Shown: positions 2,405 to 61,159 of the stretch, in pieces
Numbering within the stretch: the first letter of the stretch is position 1
Layout: each line of letters opens with the position of its first letter
Sequence record: PV636258.1
Source of the DNA: a phage
Length of the DNA stretch: 64,000 nucleotides
Direction: 5' to 3' (one strand)
Notes under the pieces: generated by a model
What the model was told of the DNA's origin: nothing
What the model saw: only the letters and a program-made list of their open reading frames with translations
Database searches by the model: none
Position numbers and translations under genes: made by a program

Positions 2405-3373
2405 ATGGCGAATTTCAAGTCGACCATCGATAAGATCAAAGTTCTGAACACAAAAGGCTTGGCCAAGTCTCAGAAGCAATTGGTCTATCCATTAGACATA
2501 ACAGGGGGTAAAACCCTGGGCCATTATGTTCTATTCAACATCAACCGAATATCTGGTTCTTCATATGGGGACACCACAACCCAAACCGTCGAAAATCCGA
2601 TACAAAATCCATTGGGTAAGACTCCTGTGGTTTATGGTTCTAAATCGGGGTCTATTAGCAAATATGCTTGGGCGCGTCATGTCCGCTCTAACGAGTCAAT
2701 CGTGTTGTGTATGCCCGAATCCATTACAACCAACTATGGCGTTGGTTGGAACGGCTCCGAGTTGGGATTAGCAGGTATGGGTGCCCAATTCTTATCACGC
2801 GCCGCCCAAGATATGAGTCAATTCAAACTTGGGGATGCTTTGAATGTTGGGAAAGAAATGGGGAGATTTGCGGCAACAAAGGCCATTCAATCTGCTTCGG
2901 AAGCAATTCCTTTCTTGCCGACAATTAATGCTCATGATACATTAGAATTGTTTACAGGTACGATGACCAACCCGTATGTGGAAATGATTTTCCAAGGGGT
3001 GCGCAACCGAGAAATCCCGTTCACATTCAAATTCACTCCAAGATCGCAAAAAGAGGCGAAAATGGTGCGGGAGATTATCCGTTTATTCAAGATGCACATG
3101 TATCCAGAATACAAATACAACAAGAATTCCAGCGCATTCTATCTTCATCCATCCACGTTTGATATCACGTTCATGGTCCAGGGAGAACGCAACAAATGGT
3201 TGCATCGGATATCGACTTGCGTCCTATCAAATATGTTTGTCAACGAGACGCCTGACTCTTCATATGCTGTACACAAAGATGACAGCATCGTGTCGACACA
3301 AATCGACATGACGTTTATAGAACTAGAACCGTTGCACAAAGGCCGCTTTGATACCGAAGGCGACAGCTTCTAA
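2405..3373 (+). CDS. Hypothetical protein, possible virion/baseplate-tail junction component
   Basis: 322-aa ORF in a plus-strand block divergent from the gp4-like gene; beta-rich composition; function inferred from position only. Confidence 0.4.
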   Translation: MANFKSTIDKIKVLNTKGLAKSQKQLVYPLDITGGKTLGHYVLFNINRISGSSYGDTTTQTVENPIQNPLGKTPVVYGSKSGSISKYAWARHVRSNESIVLCMPESITTNYGVGWNGSELGLAGMGAQFLSRAAQDMSQFKLGDALNVGKEMGRFAATKAIQSASEAIPFLPTINAHDTLELFTGTMTNPYVEMIFQGVRNREIPFTFKFTPRSQKEAKMVREIIRLFKMHMYPEYKYNKNSSAFYLHPSTFDITFMVQGERNKWLHRISTCVLSNMFVNETPDSSYAVHKDDSIVSTQIDMTFIELEPLHKGRFDTEGDSF

Positions 3374-18818: not shown

Positions 18819-19778
18819 TTACGCAGCAGCTTTCGCTTCGGCCAACGCCTGTGGTAACCATTCATTGATTGCTTTCACCAGAGATTCGGCATCAGTTTCT
18901 TTGATTTTCTGGCGTTTGGTGAATGATTTACCATTCACATACAGACTGAACCCCCAGCCGCCGGAAACGATCGGCGCCAGATCAACATAAGTATTGGTGC
19001 GGGCGTGTGGATTGGCTTCATCTGCCAATTCGGTAACAGGGAACTGGAACCAGCGCATATCCGGATTCACATAGCTCAAATAAACCCCAGGCACAACCCC
19101 CGATTCAACCGCAGCCAGGATAGGACCATAATTGGATGCGCGAGCCGCTTCAACCATTTCTTCACGCTTGTTATGACGACGCTTGCGTTCTTCGGTAGAA
19201 GATGCAGGGCGCATTTCAGAAGATTTCTTGGCCAGAACCGCCTTCGCGTTCGCTAAAGCCTGATCATCCTTCGGATTTTCAACGTCGGCGATTGCTTCAG
19301 CAACGGTTGTGCCCAGCATACGACGGCGAACTTCTTCAGCACGGGCTTGCGCTTCTTCGTCAAGAACTTCTTCGCCTTCAACTACCAGGGAAATGGAACC
19401 GTCTTTGTTGACTTCAAGAGAACCGTCTTCGACGGTCTGGGAATTTTGATCACCGACAGGTTGCCCAACCGTTTCTTCGGCGTCAATCACCGGATTTGAT
19501 TCACCGTCGCCCTGTTTAACCCCCGCATCTTCGGTCGGTTTAACTTTTTCGGCTTCAGCGCGGTCAAGAGCTTCGAGAGTCTCTTCTTTCTCTTCCTGGC
19601 TCAGACCTTCGATGAGTTCAAAGCCATTGGCTGACTGAAGGACGCCTTCCATCATGCGGCGTAATGTTACATTGCCAATGATAAGGTCTGCACCTTTAAT
19701 TTCTGCTTGAAGTTCAGCAGCGGTTTTACCATCAATTTCAAATTTCAGGCCGGACTCGATATGAAGAATATAGGACAT
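18819..19778 (-). CDS. Hypothetical protein with acidic central linker
   Basis: 319 aa; N-terminal domain, D/E-rich low-complexity middle, C-terminal domain; preceded by early promoter. Confidence 0.5.
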   Translation of the reverse strand: MSYILHIESGLKFEIDGKTAAELQAEIKGADLIIGNVTLRRMMEGVLQSANGFELIEGLSQEEKEETLEALDRAEAEKVKPTEDAGVKQGDGESNPVIDAEETVGQPVGDQNSQTVEDGSLEVNKDGSISLVVEGEEVLDEEAQARAEEVRRRMLGTTVAEAIADVENPKDDQALANAKAVLAKKSSEMRPASSTEERKRRHNKREEMVEAARASNYGPILAAVESGVVPGVYLSYVNPDMRWFQFPVTELADEANPHARTNTYVDLAPIVSGGWGFSLYVNGKSFTKRQKIKETDAESLVKAINEWLPQALAEAKAAA

Positions 19779-19845: not shown

Positions 19846-19874
19846 AATATACTGCCTTTTTAGAAGATGTAAAC
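19846..19874 (-). promoter_or_regulatory. Sigma70-like early promoter (minus: GTTTACA-N16-TATATT)
   Basis: Read directly upstream of the 18819..19778 gene. Confidence 0.35.
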
Positions 19875-21781: not shown

Positions 21782-21789
21782 TATAAATA
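21782..21789 (+). promoter_or_regulatory. T4-type late promoter core TATAAATA
   Basis: Exact TATAAATA 35 nt upstream of a GGAG-preceded GTG start at 21824. Confidence 0.35.
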
Positions 21790-26575: not shown

Positions 26576-26583
26576 TATAAATA
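26576..26583 (+). promoter_or_regulatory. T4-type late promoter core TATAAATA
   Basis: Exact TATAAATA 28 nt upstream of the ATG at 26612. Confidence 0.4.
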
Positions 26584-26611: not shown

Positions 26612-27415
26612 ATGAATTTACCATCATTGCCCAAAACTGAGAGAACACATAAAAGTGATTTCTGGCCGACTGTGATCAAATACCGCGCCTTTACAGCAGG
26701 GCAACAGACCATGTTACTTCAGGTTGCTGATCCGAACACTCCTATGGGTGAGCGCGTGGCAACATTGGAGCAACTATTTGACAGTTGTGTTGATGCTGGC
26801 GTTCCCTTTAGTAAACTGCCAATCGGTGTTACTGAAGAAGTATTTTTAAAGATGCGCTGTATATCTATCGGCGAGGTCATGAAGATACGTTACAAATGTA
26901 ACAATAAAGTTCAAGCCGACACAAATGAAGGTGAAGAACCAGTTTCTGGTGTTAAAGATTGTGGCCAAGAGCTTGTGTTACCGATCCCGCTCAATCAGGT
27001 AAAATGCGTGTCCCCAGAAGGCTTCAGGGAGACGTTTGATCTACCAGGTGGTTATCATATAAAGATGCGCCAGCCGTCCTTCTCGGATGCCTCAGTGCTT
27101 AATGAAGCATCCTCTGTTGAACAAATGATTGCCACCTTTATCGATTGCCTGTATGACGACGATGGTCAGGTTTGGAAGGTGGAAAATCCGGCTGAACCTG
27201 GTATCAATCCAGAAGTTGCTAAAGAACGCCAACGCATTAAGGATGAATTTGTCAAATGGGTTGGGGACAATATCGAATCTGAGATTGTTCAGGACATTTC
27301 GAATGATTTCTTTAAAAAGATTCCGCGTATTCGTTACGCGACAAAAATTAAATGCCCTTCGTGTGGGAAAGAACACGAAGTCAAATTTAACAGTGTCACC
27401 GAGATTTTCATTTAA
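26612..27415 (+). CDS. Hypothetical late protein with C-terminal CxxC (possible baseplate/hub assembly component)
   Basis: 267 aa; GGAGA SD; late-promoter motif upstream; KCPSCGKEHE near C-terminus. Confidence 0.45.
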   Translation: MNLPSLPKTERTHKSDFWPTVIKYRAFTAGQQTMLLQVADPNTPMGERVATLEQLFDSCVDAGVPFSKLPIGVTEEVFLKMRCISIGEVMKIRYKCNNKVQADTNEGEEPVSGVKDCGQELVLPIPLNQVKCVSPEGFRETFDLPGGYHIKMRQPSFSDASVLNEASSVEQMIATFIDCLYDDDGQVWKVENPAEPGINPEVAKERQRIKDEFVKWVGDNIESEIVQDISNDFFKKIPRIRYATKIKCPSCGKEHEVKFNSVTEIFI

Positions 27416-37536: not shown

Positions 37537-37721
37537 CTTGATACCACCACTGGCATGATTTCGCTGAAGGACGTACGAACTTCGGTGTCGTACCCGTATT
37601 TTTCAAATATTTTCAACATTGCTTGTTCCAGTTCCTCTTGGAACTGAGGAAAGTGCGCGTTGGGAATTCGGTCGGCAACCCATAGAGCGCCAGGAGAGGC
37701 TTGGATAATTGCTCTACTCAT
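37533..37721 (-). CDS. Hypothetical protein
   Basis: 62-aa ORF, translationally coupled. Confidence 0.35.
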   Translation of the reverse strand: MSRAIIQASPGALWVADRIPNAHFPQFQEELEQAMLKIFEKYGYDTEVRTSFSEIMPVVVSR

Positions 37722-37776
37722 GTCTCATTCTCCTACCAAAACTTTGAAAAAGAGGGGAGAAACCTCCCCCTTGCGG

Positions 37777-38265
37777 TTAAGCCAATTTGTTCACCAGAGT
37801 TTCTACTGCGTCGGCGCTCAGTTTACCCATTTTGACATACTGGGATTTCGCTTCACCGCCAGCGGCTTTCACGATATCACTGTTGTCATAACCCTTTTTC
37901 GGGAATACCATCACGGAGAATGTTCCGTTGTTCAGCGGGTTCAGCTGAATACGACCTTTACCGACTACGATGGTGCCGTAAGTTTCGGTATTCGCTTCAA
38001 CAACGTGGATGTCATGGCCCAGGTCTTTCAGCATGCCAACTTTGTCAGCAGTCTTGGCAACTACGGCTTTGTCTACGACAACCTGCTCTACCAGGGTGAA
38101 GCCGTTGGTTGCTTTCACTTTGCCGTTCAGCAGATTCATGAAGGAAGTTTTGCCACCAGTGAATCCAGCTGCCTGAGCGATGCGGAACATCTCAACTTTT
38201 GCAACTTCGGTGTTCAGCTCAAAAGAGATGGTGCCGTTGGTGATCAGAGTTTTGGTAGTAGCCAT
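37777..38265 (-). CDS. Hypothetical protein, likely abundant early product
   Basis: 163 aa from the ATG at 38265 with GAGGAA SD; strong promoter with AT-rich upstream element; the track start further upstream is implausible. Confidence 0.5.
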   Translation of the reverse strand: MATTKTLITNGTISFELNTEVAKVEMFRIAQAAGFTGGKTSFMNLLNGKVKATNGFTLVEQVVVDKAVVAKTADKVGMLKDLGHDIHVVEANTETYGTIVVGKGRIQLNPLNNGTFSVMVFPKKGYDNSDIVKAAGGEAKSQYVKMGKLSADAVETLVNKLA

Positions 38266-38342
38266 GATGTAATTCCTCATAATGTAGTTGGGTCGTTTCA
38301 CTTTTCATTCGGCGGTGTGTTGTGTACCGCCCTATGTGAACT

Positions 38343-38371
38343 ATAATAGTGCATCATTATTGAAGAGTAAA
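38343..38371 (-). promoter_or_regulatory. Sigma70-like early promoter (minus: TTTACT-N17-TATTAT) with AT-rich upstream element
   Basis: Read directly; about 40 nt of A/T-rich sequence upstream of -35. Confidence 0.45.
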
Positions 38372-38415
38372 GTCTTTTTCAATAAATTTTTAAATTATTT
38401 TTGAAGTATTTTAAA

Positions 38416-38436
38416 AGGCCTCATAGAACGAGGCCT
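38416..38436 (-). terminator. Stem-loop (AGGCCTC/GAGGCCT)
   Basis: 7-bp inverted repeat followed by T-tract on the minus strand. Confidence 0.45.
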
Positions 38437-40698: not shown

Positions 40699-41052
40699 TT
40701 AGGACAGTTGCTTCAGTTTGTAAATCGTTTGATAGCACAGAGTCTTGATTTCGTCAAGCGTATTTTGTAAATGGCTATCACACTGATTGTAGATCCCATT
40801 AACGTCGATGATCACGCTGTTGATATACGATATCGGTTCAGGATTGTACAATTTGATGTTCTCGAATCCTGGAATGTATATACCTCCCGCACCAATATAC
40901 GCTTCCGTAAAGGTGTCCAGCAAGTCCTCCAGTTCCCCGTAGAACTCCCCGAGTGCCTTGTGCTTGGCATAGGACGTTGTAACGAAGTGGAGGGCATGAG
41001 AGTGGGCTATAGCAAGCAGTCCACGGTTGATGAATATACTCGCGTTAACCAT
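40699..41052 (-). CDS. Hypothetical protein
   Basis: 117-aa ORF, ATG start. Confidence 0.4.
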   Translation of the reverse strand: MVNASIFINRGLLAIAHSHALHFVTTSYAKHKALGEFYGELEDLLDTFTEAYIGAGGIYIPGFENIKLYNPEPISYINSVIIDVNGIYNQCDSHLQNTLDEIKTLCYQTIYKLKQLS

Positions 41053-44772: not shown

Positions 44773-45048
44773 TTAACGACGAAACGGGCGAGACGCGTTT
44801 TGGCGATTGTTGTAATTCTTATCAAATTGTGCCAACGCCGCCGGACTCCATTCGCGTTCCCATTCTTTGTCAACTTCGGTTTGGTTGGCAGGTTCAATCA
44901 TTTCAGCAGTAGGAAAATCGCGTTTCATAATTTCACGCAATTGTTCAGAAGGGGCGGTTTGGGCGTGGACTAATTCTTCACCGTCGTAAACTTTGGCCAT
45001 CAACCATTTGCTGCCGTAACGGATATATGCGTCGAGGATGATTTTCAT
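44773..45048 (-). CDS. Hypothetical protein
   Basis: ATG at 45048 with AGGAAC SD; the track start at 45069 is TTG. Confidence 0.4.
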   Translation of the reverse strand: MKIILDAYIRYGSKWLMAKVYDGEELVHAQTAPSEQLREIMKRDFPTAEMIEPANQTEVDKEWEREWSPAALAQFDKNYNNRQNASRPFRR

Positions 45049-45096: not shown

Positions 45097-45124
45097 ATTA
45101 TACGTGGGTTATTGAAGAAGTAAA
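45097..45124 (-). promoter_or_regulatory. Sigma70-like early promoter (minus: TTTACT-N16-TATAAT)
   Basis: Consensus -10 TATAAT; -35 abuts the hairpin. Confidence 0.45.
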
Positions 45125-54839: not shown

Positions 54840-55118
54840 TTACTGGCCGTTGGCAGCAGCTTTCAGACCTTCACCGACTTTGAATTTAACTACATTTTTC
54901 GCTTCGATCTGGATCTGTTGTCCGTTCAGCGGGTTGCGGCCAGTGCGCGCTTCCTGATGTTTAACTTCGAACGCGCCGAAGCCTACGAATTGGACAGATT
55001 GGCCAGCCGCGACTGCAGTTTTCACGCCATTGATAAAAGATGCAACGATTTTCTCAGCTTCGCCTTTGGTCATACCCTGAGTCTGGGCGATGTGAGCGAT
55101 AAAATCAGTACGGTTCAT
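54840..55118 (-). CDS. HU/IHF-family histone-like DNA-binding protein
   Basis: From the ATG at 55118 (GGAG SD): MNRTDFIAHIAQ..., GFGAFEVKHQEARTGRNPLNGQQI, the hallmark HU arm motif; 92 aa. Confidence 0.8.
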   Translation of the reverse strand: MNRTDFIAHIAQTQGMTKGEAEKIVASFINGVKTAVAAGQSVQFVGFGAFEVKHQEARTGRNPLNGQQIQIEAKNVVKFKVGEGLKAAANGQ

Positions 55119-60839: not shown

Positions 60840-61079
60840 TTAACTGACGTGCTTCAGAAGAGCGAAGAGGATCACGGCCTTGGCTTTCACCTTGCCGACG
60901 ATGCCTGTCTCAACATCGACTTCTTCCGCAACCCACTCTTTACCCTTCTTGCTAATGATGACGTCGCGGCGCTGGACGTATACCTCTTTCGTCGCATACA
61001 CACGACGGAACCCTTTAGCGCGGAGCAAGCCCCAATTACGGTCAATCTCCACTGAAGTTTCTACCATTTTGTTCTTCAT
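60840..61079 (-). CDS. Hypothetical protein
   Basis: 79-aa ORF, ATG start, own promoter. Confidence 0.4.
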   Translation of the reverse strand: MKNKMVETSVEIDRNWGLLRAKGFRRVYATKEVYVQRRDVIISKKGKEWVAEEVDVETGIVGKVKAKAVILFALLKHVS

Positions 61080-61130: not shown

Positions 61131-61159
61131 ATAATACGCATTTGCCTTATAGAAGTAAA
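61131..61159 (-). promoter_or_regulatory. Sigma70-like early promoter (minus: GTTTAC-N17-TATTAT)
   Basis: Read directly. Confidence 0.4.

Follow-up and report, generated by a model that had tools for sequence, protein, structure and literature searches.

We analyzed a stretch of 64,000 nucleotides of phage DNA (sequence record PV636258.1; the window, to which all positions refer) and focus here on one small gene on its minus strand, which ends at position 37,777 and which we call the target gene. The 901 bases around this gene are 100% identical to the Salmonella phages PM10, Chennai and SM5 and have 80-99% identity to ~270 further phage records, which are almost exclusively from Ackermannviridae with Salmonella, Klebsiella, Escherichia, Dickeya, Shigella and Serratia as hosts. 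Because of the nucleotide matches to PM10 and other Ackermannviridae, we regard the window as a segment of a Kuttervirus genome. In PM10, RefSeq lists the same 489-nt coding sequence (BI092_gp030) as a "hypothetical protein", and the gene is always annotated in this way, i.e. as PM10 gp030, CBA120 orf104, Sajous1 gp1 and LIMEstone1 ORF073. It sits in a replication and nucleotide-metabolism block, in which it is preceded in PM10 by the DNA primase gene and a 69-aa open reading frame (ORF) and followed by two small ORFs, the endolysin gene, phoH and nrdAB, all on the same strand; the order primase, small ORF, target gene, endolysin, phoH and nrdA is kept in five genera. We consider it highly probable that the target gene is a real, autonomous and highly expressed core gene whose product is not part of the virion.

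The locus had previously been described in a first-pass annotation made from the sequence, in which the gene appeared as a 163-aa ORF. The ORF is indeed present on the minus strand, while its product is 162 aa long; the value of 163 is too high because the stop codon (37777..37779) was counted. The same annotation had rejected a longer N-terminus as implausible, and the comparative data agree with this view: the extensions starting at GTG 38301 or ATG 38280 are not conserved, the corresponding frames are closed by stop codons or out of frame in the Klebsiella and Erwinia phages, Serratia phage 3M has no upstream ATG at the orthologue, and M-x-T-x-K-T is the N-terminus of all orthologues, in line with a start at the ATG at 38265. 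In Vibrio phage K452 (locus L006), the start codon annotated for the orthologue (2462..3013) falls within the TATAAT of the promoter predicted for it (TTGCGT-N16-TATAAT), and this annotated N-terminus is probably too long. Antisense to the target gene, a 228-aa plus-strand ORF with a TTG start spans 37660..38346; it has no annotation in the RefSeq record of PM10 and is most likely a shadow ORF of the strongly codon-biased target gene.

The target gene is flanked by an ordered set of signals (Table 1). On the upstream side, the preceding gene ends in a terminator-like hairpin (-13.6 kcal/mol, z -4.06), which is marked as a terminator in the LIMEstone1 annotation and in which the stem is kept and the loop is variable in Kuttervirus, Limestonevirus and Taipeivirus. 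This hairpin is followed by an A/T-rich tract and by the promoter TTTACT-N17-TATTAT, and both elements are present as the first-pass annotation had proposed; with 91% A/T, the 23 nt that precede the -35 hexamer rank second in A/T content among 165 promoter-like sites in the window. Transcription is predicted to start at 38337-38335, i.e. 6-8 nt past the -10 hexamer, and the predicted mRNA would begin with a stem-loop (-12.3 kcal/mol, z -4.25), which none of 200 shuffled sequences matched in stability. Across genera, the stem of this leader hairpin is conserved, and its loop is variable in sequence and length. The GAGGAA Shine-Dalgarno sequence named in the first-pass annotation is also present, and its GAGG is conserved in the orthologues. 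On the downstream side, a second stem-loop (37770..37753) is followed by CUUUUUC, and the earlier suggestion that the gene is flanked by terminators thus finds hairpins on both sides, the upstream one followed by UUUU. In every orthologue, the stop codon is followed within a few bases by a G+C-rich hairpin, the loop of which is GAAA, GCAA or UUCG. The stems of these 3' hairpins differ between genera, and therefore it is the structure and not the sequence that is kept.

Table 1. Positions of the target gene, its flanking signals and related elements in the window
Feature	Position	Strand	Remarks
Coding sequence, 162 aa + stop	37777..38265	minus	ORF and RefSeq coding sequence of PM10
Promoter	38343..38371	minus	motif scan; -35 TTTACT 38371..38366, 17-nt spacer, -10 TATTAT 38348..38343
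A/T-rich, UP-element-like tract	38372..38412	minus	contains the distal octamer TTATTGAA
Distal octamer	38378..38385		TTATTGAA on the minus strand, equal to TTCAATAA on the plus strand
Proximal octamer TTCAATAA	38364..38357	minus	in the promoter spacer
Terminator-like hairpin of the preceding gene	38416..38436	minus	AGGCCUC...GAGGCCU, then UUUU at 38415..38412
5'-terminal stem-loop of the predicted mRNA	38306..38336	minus	GGCGGU/ACCGCC stem
Shine-Dalgarno sequence GAGGAA	38273..38278	minus	7 nt before the ATG; read from sequence
3' hairpin and U-rich tail	37746..37770	minus	GGGGGAG-GUUU-CUCCCCU; terminator and/or 3' stabilizer
TTTACW-class promoter	45097..45124	minus	ahead of gene 44773..45048 (91 aa)
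TTTACW-class promoter	61131..61159	minus	ahead of gene 60840..61079 (79 aa)
TTTACW-class promoter	19846..19873	minus	ahead of gene 18819..19778 (319 aa)
TTCAATAA in coding-strand promoter regions	219, 8396, 11829/11845, 12589, 19881, 38357/38378, 45109/45141, 55186, 61124
Late-promoter motif TATAAATA	21782..21789	plus
Late-promoter motif TATAAATA	26576..26583	plus	36 nt upstream of plus-strand gene 26612..27415

Conservation of these signals was assessed by phylogenetic footprinting in an alignment of 19 distinct upstream regions from Kuttervirus, Agtrevirus, Limestonevirus, Taipeivirus, Nezavisimistyvirus (Erwinia), Miltonvirus (Serratia) and Vibrio phages. In the enterobacterial genera, the terminator stem, the A/T tract, TTTACT, the 17-bp spacing, TATTAT, the leader hairpin and GAGG are almost invariant. 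The Erwinia and Serratia phages have TTTACG-17-TATATT in the equivalent position together with a diverged spacer, and overall both hexamers and the distance between them are conserved across six genera. When Kuttervirus is compared with Taipeivirus, identity is 87% over the 170 nt upstream of the target gene, as against 76% for its coding sequence, 58% for the third positions of this coding sequence, 76% for primase and 65% for the small upstream gene. A reading of the promoter spacer (AATAATGAT) as a Fur box was ruled out because this segment is not conserved in the Klebsiella phages.

The codon usage of the target gene is the most biased in the window. Using the weights of Sharp and Li's E. 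coli set, it has a codon adaptation index (CAI) of 0.618, with the window median at 0.276 (standard deviation 0.07), which places it first among 85 ORFs; the effective number of codons (Nc), which does not depend on a reference set, is 33.8 against a median of 51.65 and again ranks first, here among 72 ORFs. In each of the six genera examined, the CAI of the orthologue exceeds that of all its neighbors; it is 0.58-0.69 in enterobacterial and 0.44-0.48 in Vibrio phages. Only one other gene in the window has a comparable bias (54840..55118 on the minus strand; CAI 0.594, Nc 35.1), and it encodes a 92-aa HU-type DNA-binding protein (Pfam PF00216, E 7.7e-30). HU-type phage proteins, of which SPO1 TF1 is the classic example, are small and basic like the target protein, and the promoter region of the HU-like gene carries the octamer TTCAATAA, as does that of the target gene. 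By contrast, the target protein has neither a Bac_DNA_binding domain (PF00216) nor another known DNA-binding domain, and while the HU fold is a dimer, the target protein is modeled as a two-domain alpha/beta protein. The upstream region of the HU-like gene and that of the target gene also have CTTTAnTTCAATAAT and a GTGAAAC leader motif in common.

Both hairpins of the predicted transcript have counterparts in known systems. Hairpins at the extreme 5' end are known to stabilize bacterial mRNAs, and the role of such terminal hairpins in mRNA stability is established knowledge. Similar to the ompA-type 5' stem-loop stabilizers, a stable hairpin is located within 1-2 nt of the predicted 5' end of the target mRNA and, similar to the stable tetraloop hairpins of T4 mRNAs, members of the target family have a GNRA or UUCG tetraloop hairpin after the stop codon. 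The target hairpins differ from the ompA and T4 systems in that they match no Rfam family and in that the transcript ends are predicted only. In searches against Rfam, no family matched the leader, its flanks or either hairpin.

The target promoter belongs to a small class marked by TTTAC and the octamer TTCAATAA, which makes the gene a possible handle on early regulation in Ackermannviridae, given that promoter and leader are conserved across genera. The pattern TTTACW-N16-18-TAWWWT occurs four times in the window against 0.61 expected copies, and none of 100 shuffled sequences reached four. All four promoters (at 38371, 45124, 61159 and 19873) are on the coding strand ahead of genes, and they have further positions in common (TCTTCAATAA). 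In the promoter at 45124, the -35 hexamer is formed by the T run of a terminator, and the leader of the gene starting at 45048 has AACTACATTATG in common with the target leader. The octamer itself is present in 23 copies in the window against 4.7 +/- 2.0 expected, i.e. an ~5-fold excess that none of 100 shuffled sequences reached, and 14 of these copies lie in intergenic DNA, although such DNA makes up only ~10% of the window. Coding-strand copies are found in promoter-like regions, typically directly after terminator hairpins and beside TTTAC and TATnAT hexamers. At the target gene, an inverted pair of octamers, TTATTGAA-N13-TTCAATAA (38357..38385), brackets the -35 hexamer, and the pair is present in all enterobacterial orthologue loci (L002-L005 and L008-L029); in the Erwinia phages, the arms are swapped to TTCAATAA-N15-TTATTGAA. 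As RNA, the inverted pair folds weakly (-4.1 kcal/mol, z -1.4). Depending on the promoter, 6 to 14 nt separate TTCAATAA from the -10 hexamer, and the octamer is therefore not a fixed -35 element. In a literature search, we found no paper describing it, and we regard it as a candidate for a promoter-class element of Ackermannviridae or for the binding site of a factor.

According to the first-pass annotation, the target gene probably encodes an abundant early protein. The expression part of this claim is backed by CAI, Nc, the conservation of promoter and leader, and the 5' hairpin, and together they strongly suggest that the target gene is highly expressed. The timing part was deduced from the sigma-70-type promoter and from the missing T4-type late motif TATAAATA, which is not found near the target gene and has only two copies in the window, both on the plus strand. 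It is a reasonable inference that the target gene is prereplicative, and it may be of an early or of a middle class; the authors of the LIMEstone1 study annotated the same TATTAT -10 hexamer as a "putative middle promoter". According to the authors of the CBA120 study, MotA, AsiA, Alt and ModA are missing from these phages, and early promoters were not identifiable (PMC3184105). A search of the literature returned no Ackermannviridae transcriptome and no proteome of infected cells.

Similar to T4 early promoters, for which the -35 consensus is GTTTAC, the target promoter has sigma-70-type hexamers preceded by an A/T-rich tract, conservation extends to positions outside the hexamers and, similar to T4 early cassettes, it is located directly after a terminator and drives one small gene. 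Unlike T4 early promoters, it has no TGn extended -10 element, and it has the phage-specific octamer TTCAATAA in the spacer and further upstream. T4 early promoters have been described in general terms elsewhere (PMC2988021); a further difference from T4 is that the phage carrying the target gene has neither Alt nor ModA (PMC3184105).

The target protein has a mass of 17.2 kDa and a pI of 9.25 and contains neither Cys nor Trp; the pI of most relatives is 8.4-10. Over its full length, it matches the profile of the uncharacterized family PHROG 3764 (E 5.5e-93, residues 1-162 against positions 1-162). By tblastn, the target protein is encoded in 357 phage records, in 272 of them at >=60% identity, and the adjacent primase is encoded in 278 records at >=60% identity; therefore, the target gene is a core gene. 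Word-indexed searches returned homologues only from Ackermannviridae-like genomes of ~140-166 kb, including a Pseudomonas phage. An exhaustive search of 1.84 billion cluster representatives with a hidden Markov model (HMM) gave 39 proteins, of which ~35 are real relatives with lengths of 93-266 aa; none of these relatives is annotated or fused to a known domain. Among the remaining matches, those of 1,768-1,884 aa are repeat-protein artefacts, and a match of 398 aa looks like chance. A protein 100% identical to the target protein is also encoded in OR844944.1 (tblastn), a 38.5-kb record labelled Enterococcus phage Efm 3-10; this copy is probably the result of contamination or of a mislabelled record.

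AlphaFold models based on 22 and 36 sequences, with predicted local distance difference test (pLDDT) scores of 81 and 86, respectively, have two alpha/beta domains. The N-domain (residues 1-63) has the order beta-beta-alpha-alpha-beta and the C-domain (residues 75-162) the order alpha-beta4-alpha-beta-alpha; they are connected by a flexible linker (residues 64-74), of which residues 64-71 are modeled with low confidence. In distant members of the family (P0079, P0080, P0082, P0083 and P0093), which are encoded by ~160 kb phages including Pseudomonas phage Cygsa01, the same domains flank a low-complexity linker that consists largely of Ala, Pro and Lys and can be up to ~100 residues long. These long Ala/Pro-rich linkers show that the two domains are independent modules. 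Conserved positions form a helix/Gly-rich-loop/helix motif in the N-domain (G34, G37-G38, K/R39, T40, S41, F42, L45, G48, K49 and G55) and cluster on the sheet of the C-domain (TETY 93-96, G104-R105-x-Q107-x-N-P110, FPKKG 121-125 and KSQY 140-143).

Mass spectrometry of virions does not list the target protein for Sajous1 (gp1; PMC10892097) or LIMEstone1 (ORF073; PMC3296691), and these virion lists included trace amounts of non-structural proteins (PMC10892097, PMC3296691). The absence from virions fits a non-structural protein. A T4-type internal head protein was ruled out because of this absence and because the N-terminus of the target protein was not seen to contain an (L/I)xE cleavage motif.

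Profile comparison, which the first-pass annotation had named as a check, did not link the target protein to any family of known function beyond the level of short motifs. Searches of Pfam, NCBIfam and PADLOC with the target protein, its distant relatives and the isolated domains gave chance-level matches only; the Pfam scan of the target protein returned no family at E <= 10, PF00216 included, Pfam scans of 29 N-domains returned no helix-turn-helix (HTH) family, and searches of Pfam and of PDB sequences with the N-domain gave nothing consistent. Three profiles searched against PDB sequences produced motif-level matches to uL10/P0 (E 0.12), the P-loop of FeoB (E 0.03) and SEL1 (E 0.11). The match to the uL10/P0 insertion domain was obtained in the N-domain with a narrow family profile through the motif GxxxGKTSFxxxL (hhalign 64% over 33 columns). 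With a broad family profile, it was lost, and matches to the FeoB P-loop with E-values of 0.03 or weaker took its place. Because the uL10/P0 match was thus exchanged for equally weak matches to P-loop GTPases, we read GxxxGKTSFxxxL as a generic Gly-rich loop of the phosphate-binding type at the N-terminus of a helix and not as a sign of homology. The target protein is also not a P-loop NTPase: A33-x4-G38-K39-T40 fits the pattern, yet relatives carry Arg, Gln or Ser in place of Lys39, the loop comes after a helix, and the domain comprises only ~63 residues.

Structure comparison gave a similar picture. With both AlphaFold models, Foldseek found no match in the PDB at E <= 0.001. Against predicted viral structures, five matches at E <= 0.001 were obtained, all of them unnamed phage proteins, and the best was the 52%-identical orthologue of an Erwinia phage. 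The top PDB matches of both models were SycH, SycE, CesT and DR_1245 (E 0.12-1, template modeling (TM) score 0.25-0.37, root-mean-square deviation 6-7 A); the best match to a type III secretion chaperone had E 0.12 and TM 0.29/0.37 and was not significant. The C-domain resembles the type III secretion class I chaperones (SycE, SycH and CesT) and DR_1245 in its order of helix, beta-sheet and helix, but there is no sequence similarity between the target protein and these chaperones and the fold match is non-significant. Homology to T4 Alc was considered because of a Foldseek entry annotated "ALC" (E 0.29, TM 0.36) and an "NPL" motif and was rejected, with an hhalign probability of 0.35% against an alignment of 16 Alc sequences; likewise, the Alc family PF17527 was not matched in Pfam. 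T4 MotB (hhalign 0.1%) and Cro/C1-type HTH proteins (hhalign 0.1% against 434 Cro) were rejected as homologues, too. The T4 host transcription inhibitor Alc (167 aa) and MotB (162 aa), the latter a prereplicative DNA-binding protein, are like the target protein in size and are prereplicative, non-virion proteins, as the target protein probably is; in the profile comparison, they are unlike it.

We suggest that the target locus is an autonomous, very highly expressed prereplicative cassette encoding a stoichiometric, nucleic-acid-binding core protein, and we assign a probability of roughly 0.5 to this statement as a whole. In this model, unmodified host sigma-70 RNA polymerase would initiate at the phage-class promoter, which directly follows the terminator that closes the preceding gene. 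The stable hairpin at the 5' end of the transcript would protect the mRNA end from decay, translation would proceed from the GAGGA ribosome site with the most host-adapted codons of the region, and the transcript would end at the G+C-rich tetraloop hairpin. The target gene would be transcribed before replication, and the protein would reach a high copy number and work stoichiometrically. It would bind nucleic acid, i.e. phage DNA or RNA or the host nucleoid, with contacts made by the helix/Gly-rich-loop/helix motif of the N-domain (G34..G37-G38-K/R39-T40-S41-F42..L45) and further contacts made by the basic/polar face of the C-domain sheet (TETY, GRxQxNP, FPKKG and KSQY). We propose nucleic acid as the partner because the protein is basic, because the Gly-loop/helix motif and the basic face of the sheet are conserved, because the protein consists of two tethered modules, and because its expression class is common only to the HU-like protein. 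The assignment of the target protein as a stoichiometric, nucleic-acid-binding factor is tentative, and we regard it as possible rather than probable.

Several observations weigh against this model. The promoter matches the sigma-70 consensus at 9 of 12 positions and has no TG before its -10 hexamer that would make it an extended -10 promoter. Sites at this level are no more frequent than by chance in a 10-kb scan (15 observed against 15.9 expected in shuffled sequence), and the whole window has 165 sites with at least 9/12 matches, several of them with 10-11/12. The predicted duplex of the Shine-Dalgarno sequence with the 3' end of 16S rRNA (-6.3 kcal/mol) ranks in the middle of the window, in which the best value is -10.8 kcal/mol. 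Taken alone, the promoter hexamers and the ribosome site are therefore unremarkable and do not bear out the statement of the first-pass annotation that the gene has the best expression signals in the window; this statement is true only after adding conservation, codon bias and the 5' hairpin, evidence that was not used there. Most orthologues have no U tract after the 3' hairpin, which therefore may not terminate transcription and, outside Kuttervirus, may stabilize or punctuate the RNA instead. "Abundant" and "prereplicative" are both deduced from sequence only. RegB, ParB and SSB were seen in virion preparations and the target protein was not, although a very abundant cytoplasmic protein might be expected as a trace contaminant. 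Finally, the net charge of the target protein is only ~+4, a few distant members are acidic overall, and no nucleic-acid-binding family was found for the target protein by Pfam, NCBIfam, PDB sequence search or Foldseek.

Alternatively, the target protein might be a stoichiometric inhibitor or "sponge" that neutralizes a host defence or enzyme by binding a protein or a small signal molecule in the conserved polar pocket of the C-domain. An inhibitor of this type needs a high copy number, in line with the apparently very high expression of the target gene, and the protein is small, non-virion and probably prereplicative; moreover, its C-domain has a conserved polar cluster (T93, E94, T95, Y96, R105, Q107, K124, Q142 and Y143), and the best, non-significant fold matches are to chaperones that bind peptides. 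However, counter-defence genes are usually accessory and variable, while the target gene is a syntenic core gene in essentially all members. The protein is basic and not an acidic DNA mimic, the Foldseek result against the PDB implies that no solved structure, anti-defence proteins included, resembles the model, and PADLOC, a library that covers defence and not counter-defence proteins, gave no match. Taken together, we consider an inhibitor unlikely. The same chaperone matches would suit an assembly chaperone or another non-virion morphogenesis helper made in bulk, and the target protein is non-virion; yet the matches are non-significant, and the gene is located in the replication and nucleotide-metabolism block with a sigma-70-type rather than a late-type promoter, which makes a role in morphogenesis very improbable. 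For an abundant early protein associated with ribosomes or translation, one could invoke the codon bias, which is at the level of genes for the translation apparatus, and the weak N-domain profile match to the uL10/P0 insertion domain, and abundant early ribosome-binding proteins are known in phage PhiKZ (PMC10914614). This match vanishes with the broader family profile, the Pfam model of the P0 insertion domain has no match, and P0 is not in the Foldseek lists, and we give an association with ribosomes hardly any weight.

A role in transcription or host takeover has also been considered. A protein acting on RNA polymerase or on TTCAATAA promoters, perhaps including its own, could replace the absent Alt, ModA, AsiA and MotA. 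T4 MotA has two domains on a flexible linker, a layout resembling that of the target protein. The octamer is over-represented and largely intergenic, the inverted pair around the target -35 hexamer is present in all enterobacterial orthologue loci, and ViI-like phages have no recognizable early and middle regulators (PMC3184105). On the other hand, profile comparison gave no homology to Alc, MotB or Cro-type HTH proteins, Foldseek gave no significant match to MotA or a transcription factor, and both the variable distance between octamer and -10 hexamer and the flip in polarity in the Erwinia phages argue against a rigid operator; regulators also rarely require the highest expression in a genome. 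We therefore regard such a factor as rather improbable. The same applies to a more far-reaching version, in which a prereplicative takeover factor with a new fold and a high copy number would coat or discriminate the hypermodified-thymidine DNA or redirect RNA polymerase at TTCAATAA promoters; the target protein could then be a functional stand-in for the set of Alt, ModA, AsiA, MotA and Alc in T4.

The kind of feature described here is ordinary, i.e. a strongly expressed small phage gene that is already annotated as hypothetical and whose promoter had already been marked in one relative, and the finding is an uncharacterized gene with good signals and not a new mechanism. What makes it worth keeping is that the gene is the codon-bias extreme of a core Ackermannviridae genome, that no relative with a known function or fold is detectable for its product, and that its promoter belongs to an undescribed class. 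Phages of the Ackermannviridae (ViI-, CBA120- and LIMEstone-like) find wide use as candidates for biocontrol and therapy. Judged by codon bias, the target protein is probably among the most abundant non-virion proteins during infection, and knowing the role of so abundant a core protein would close a real gap in the understanding of these phages. In addition, the cassette of promoter, leader and hairpin could serve as a strong expression module.

Elsewhere in the window, a 117-aa protein encoded on the minus strand (40699..41052) matches DUF5856 (E 1.7e-28) and is named "starvation-inducible transcriptional regulator" in RefSeq.

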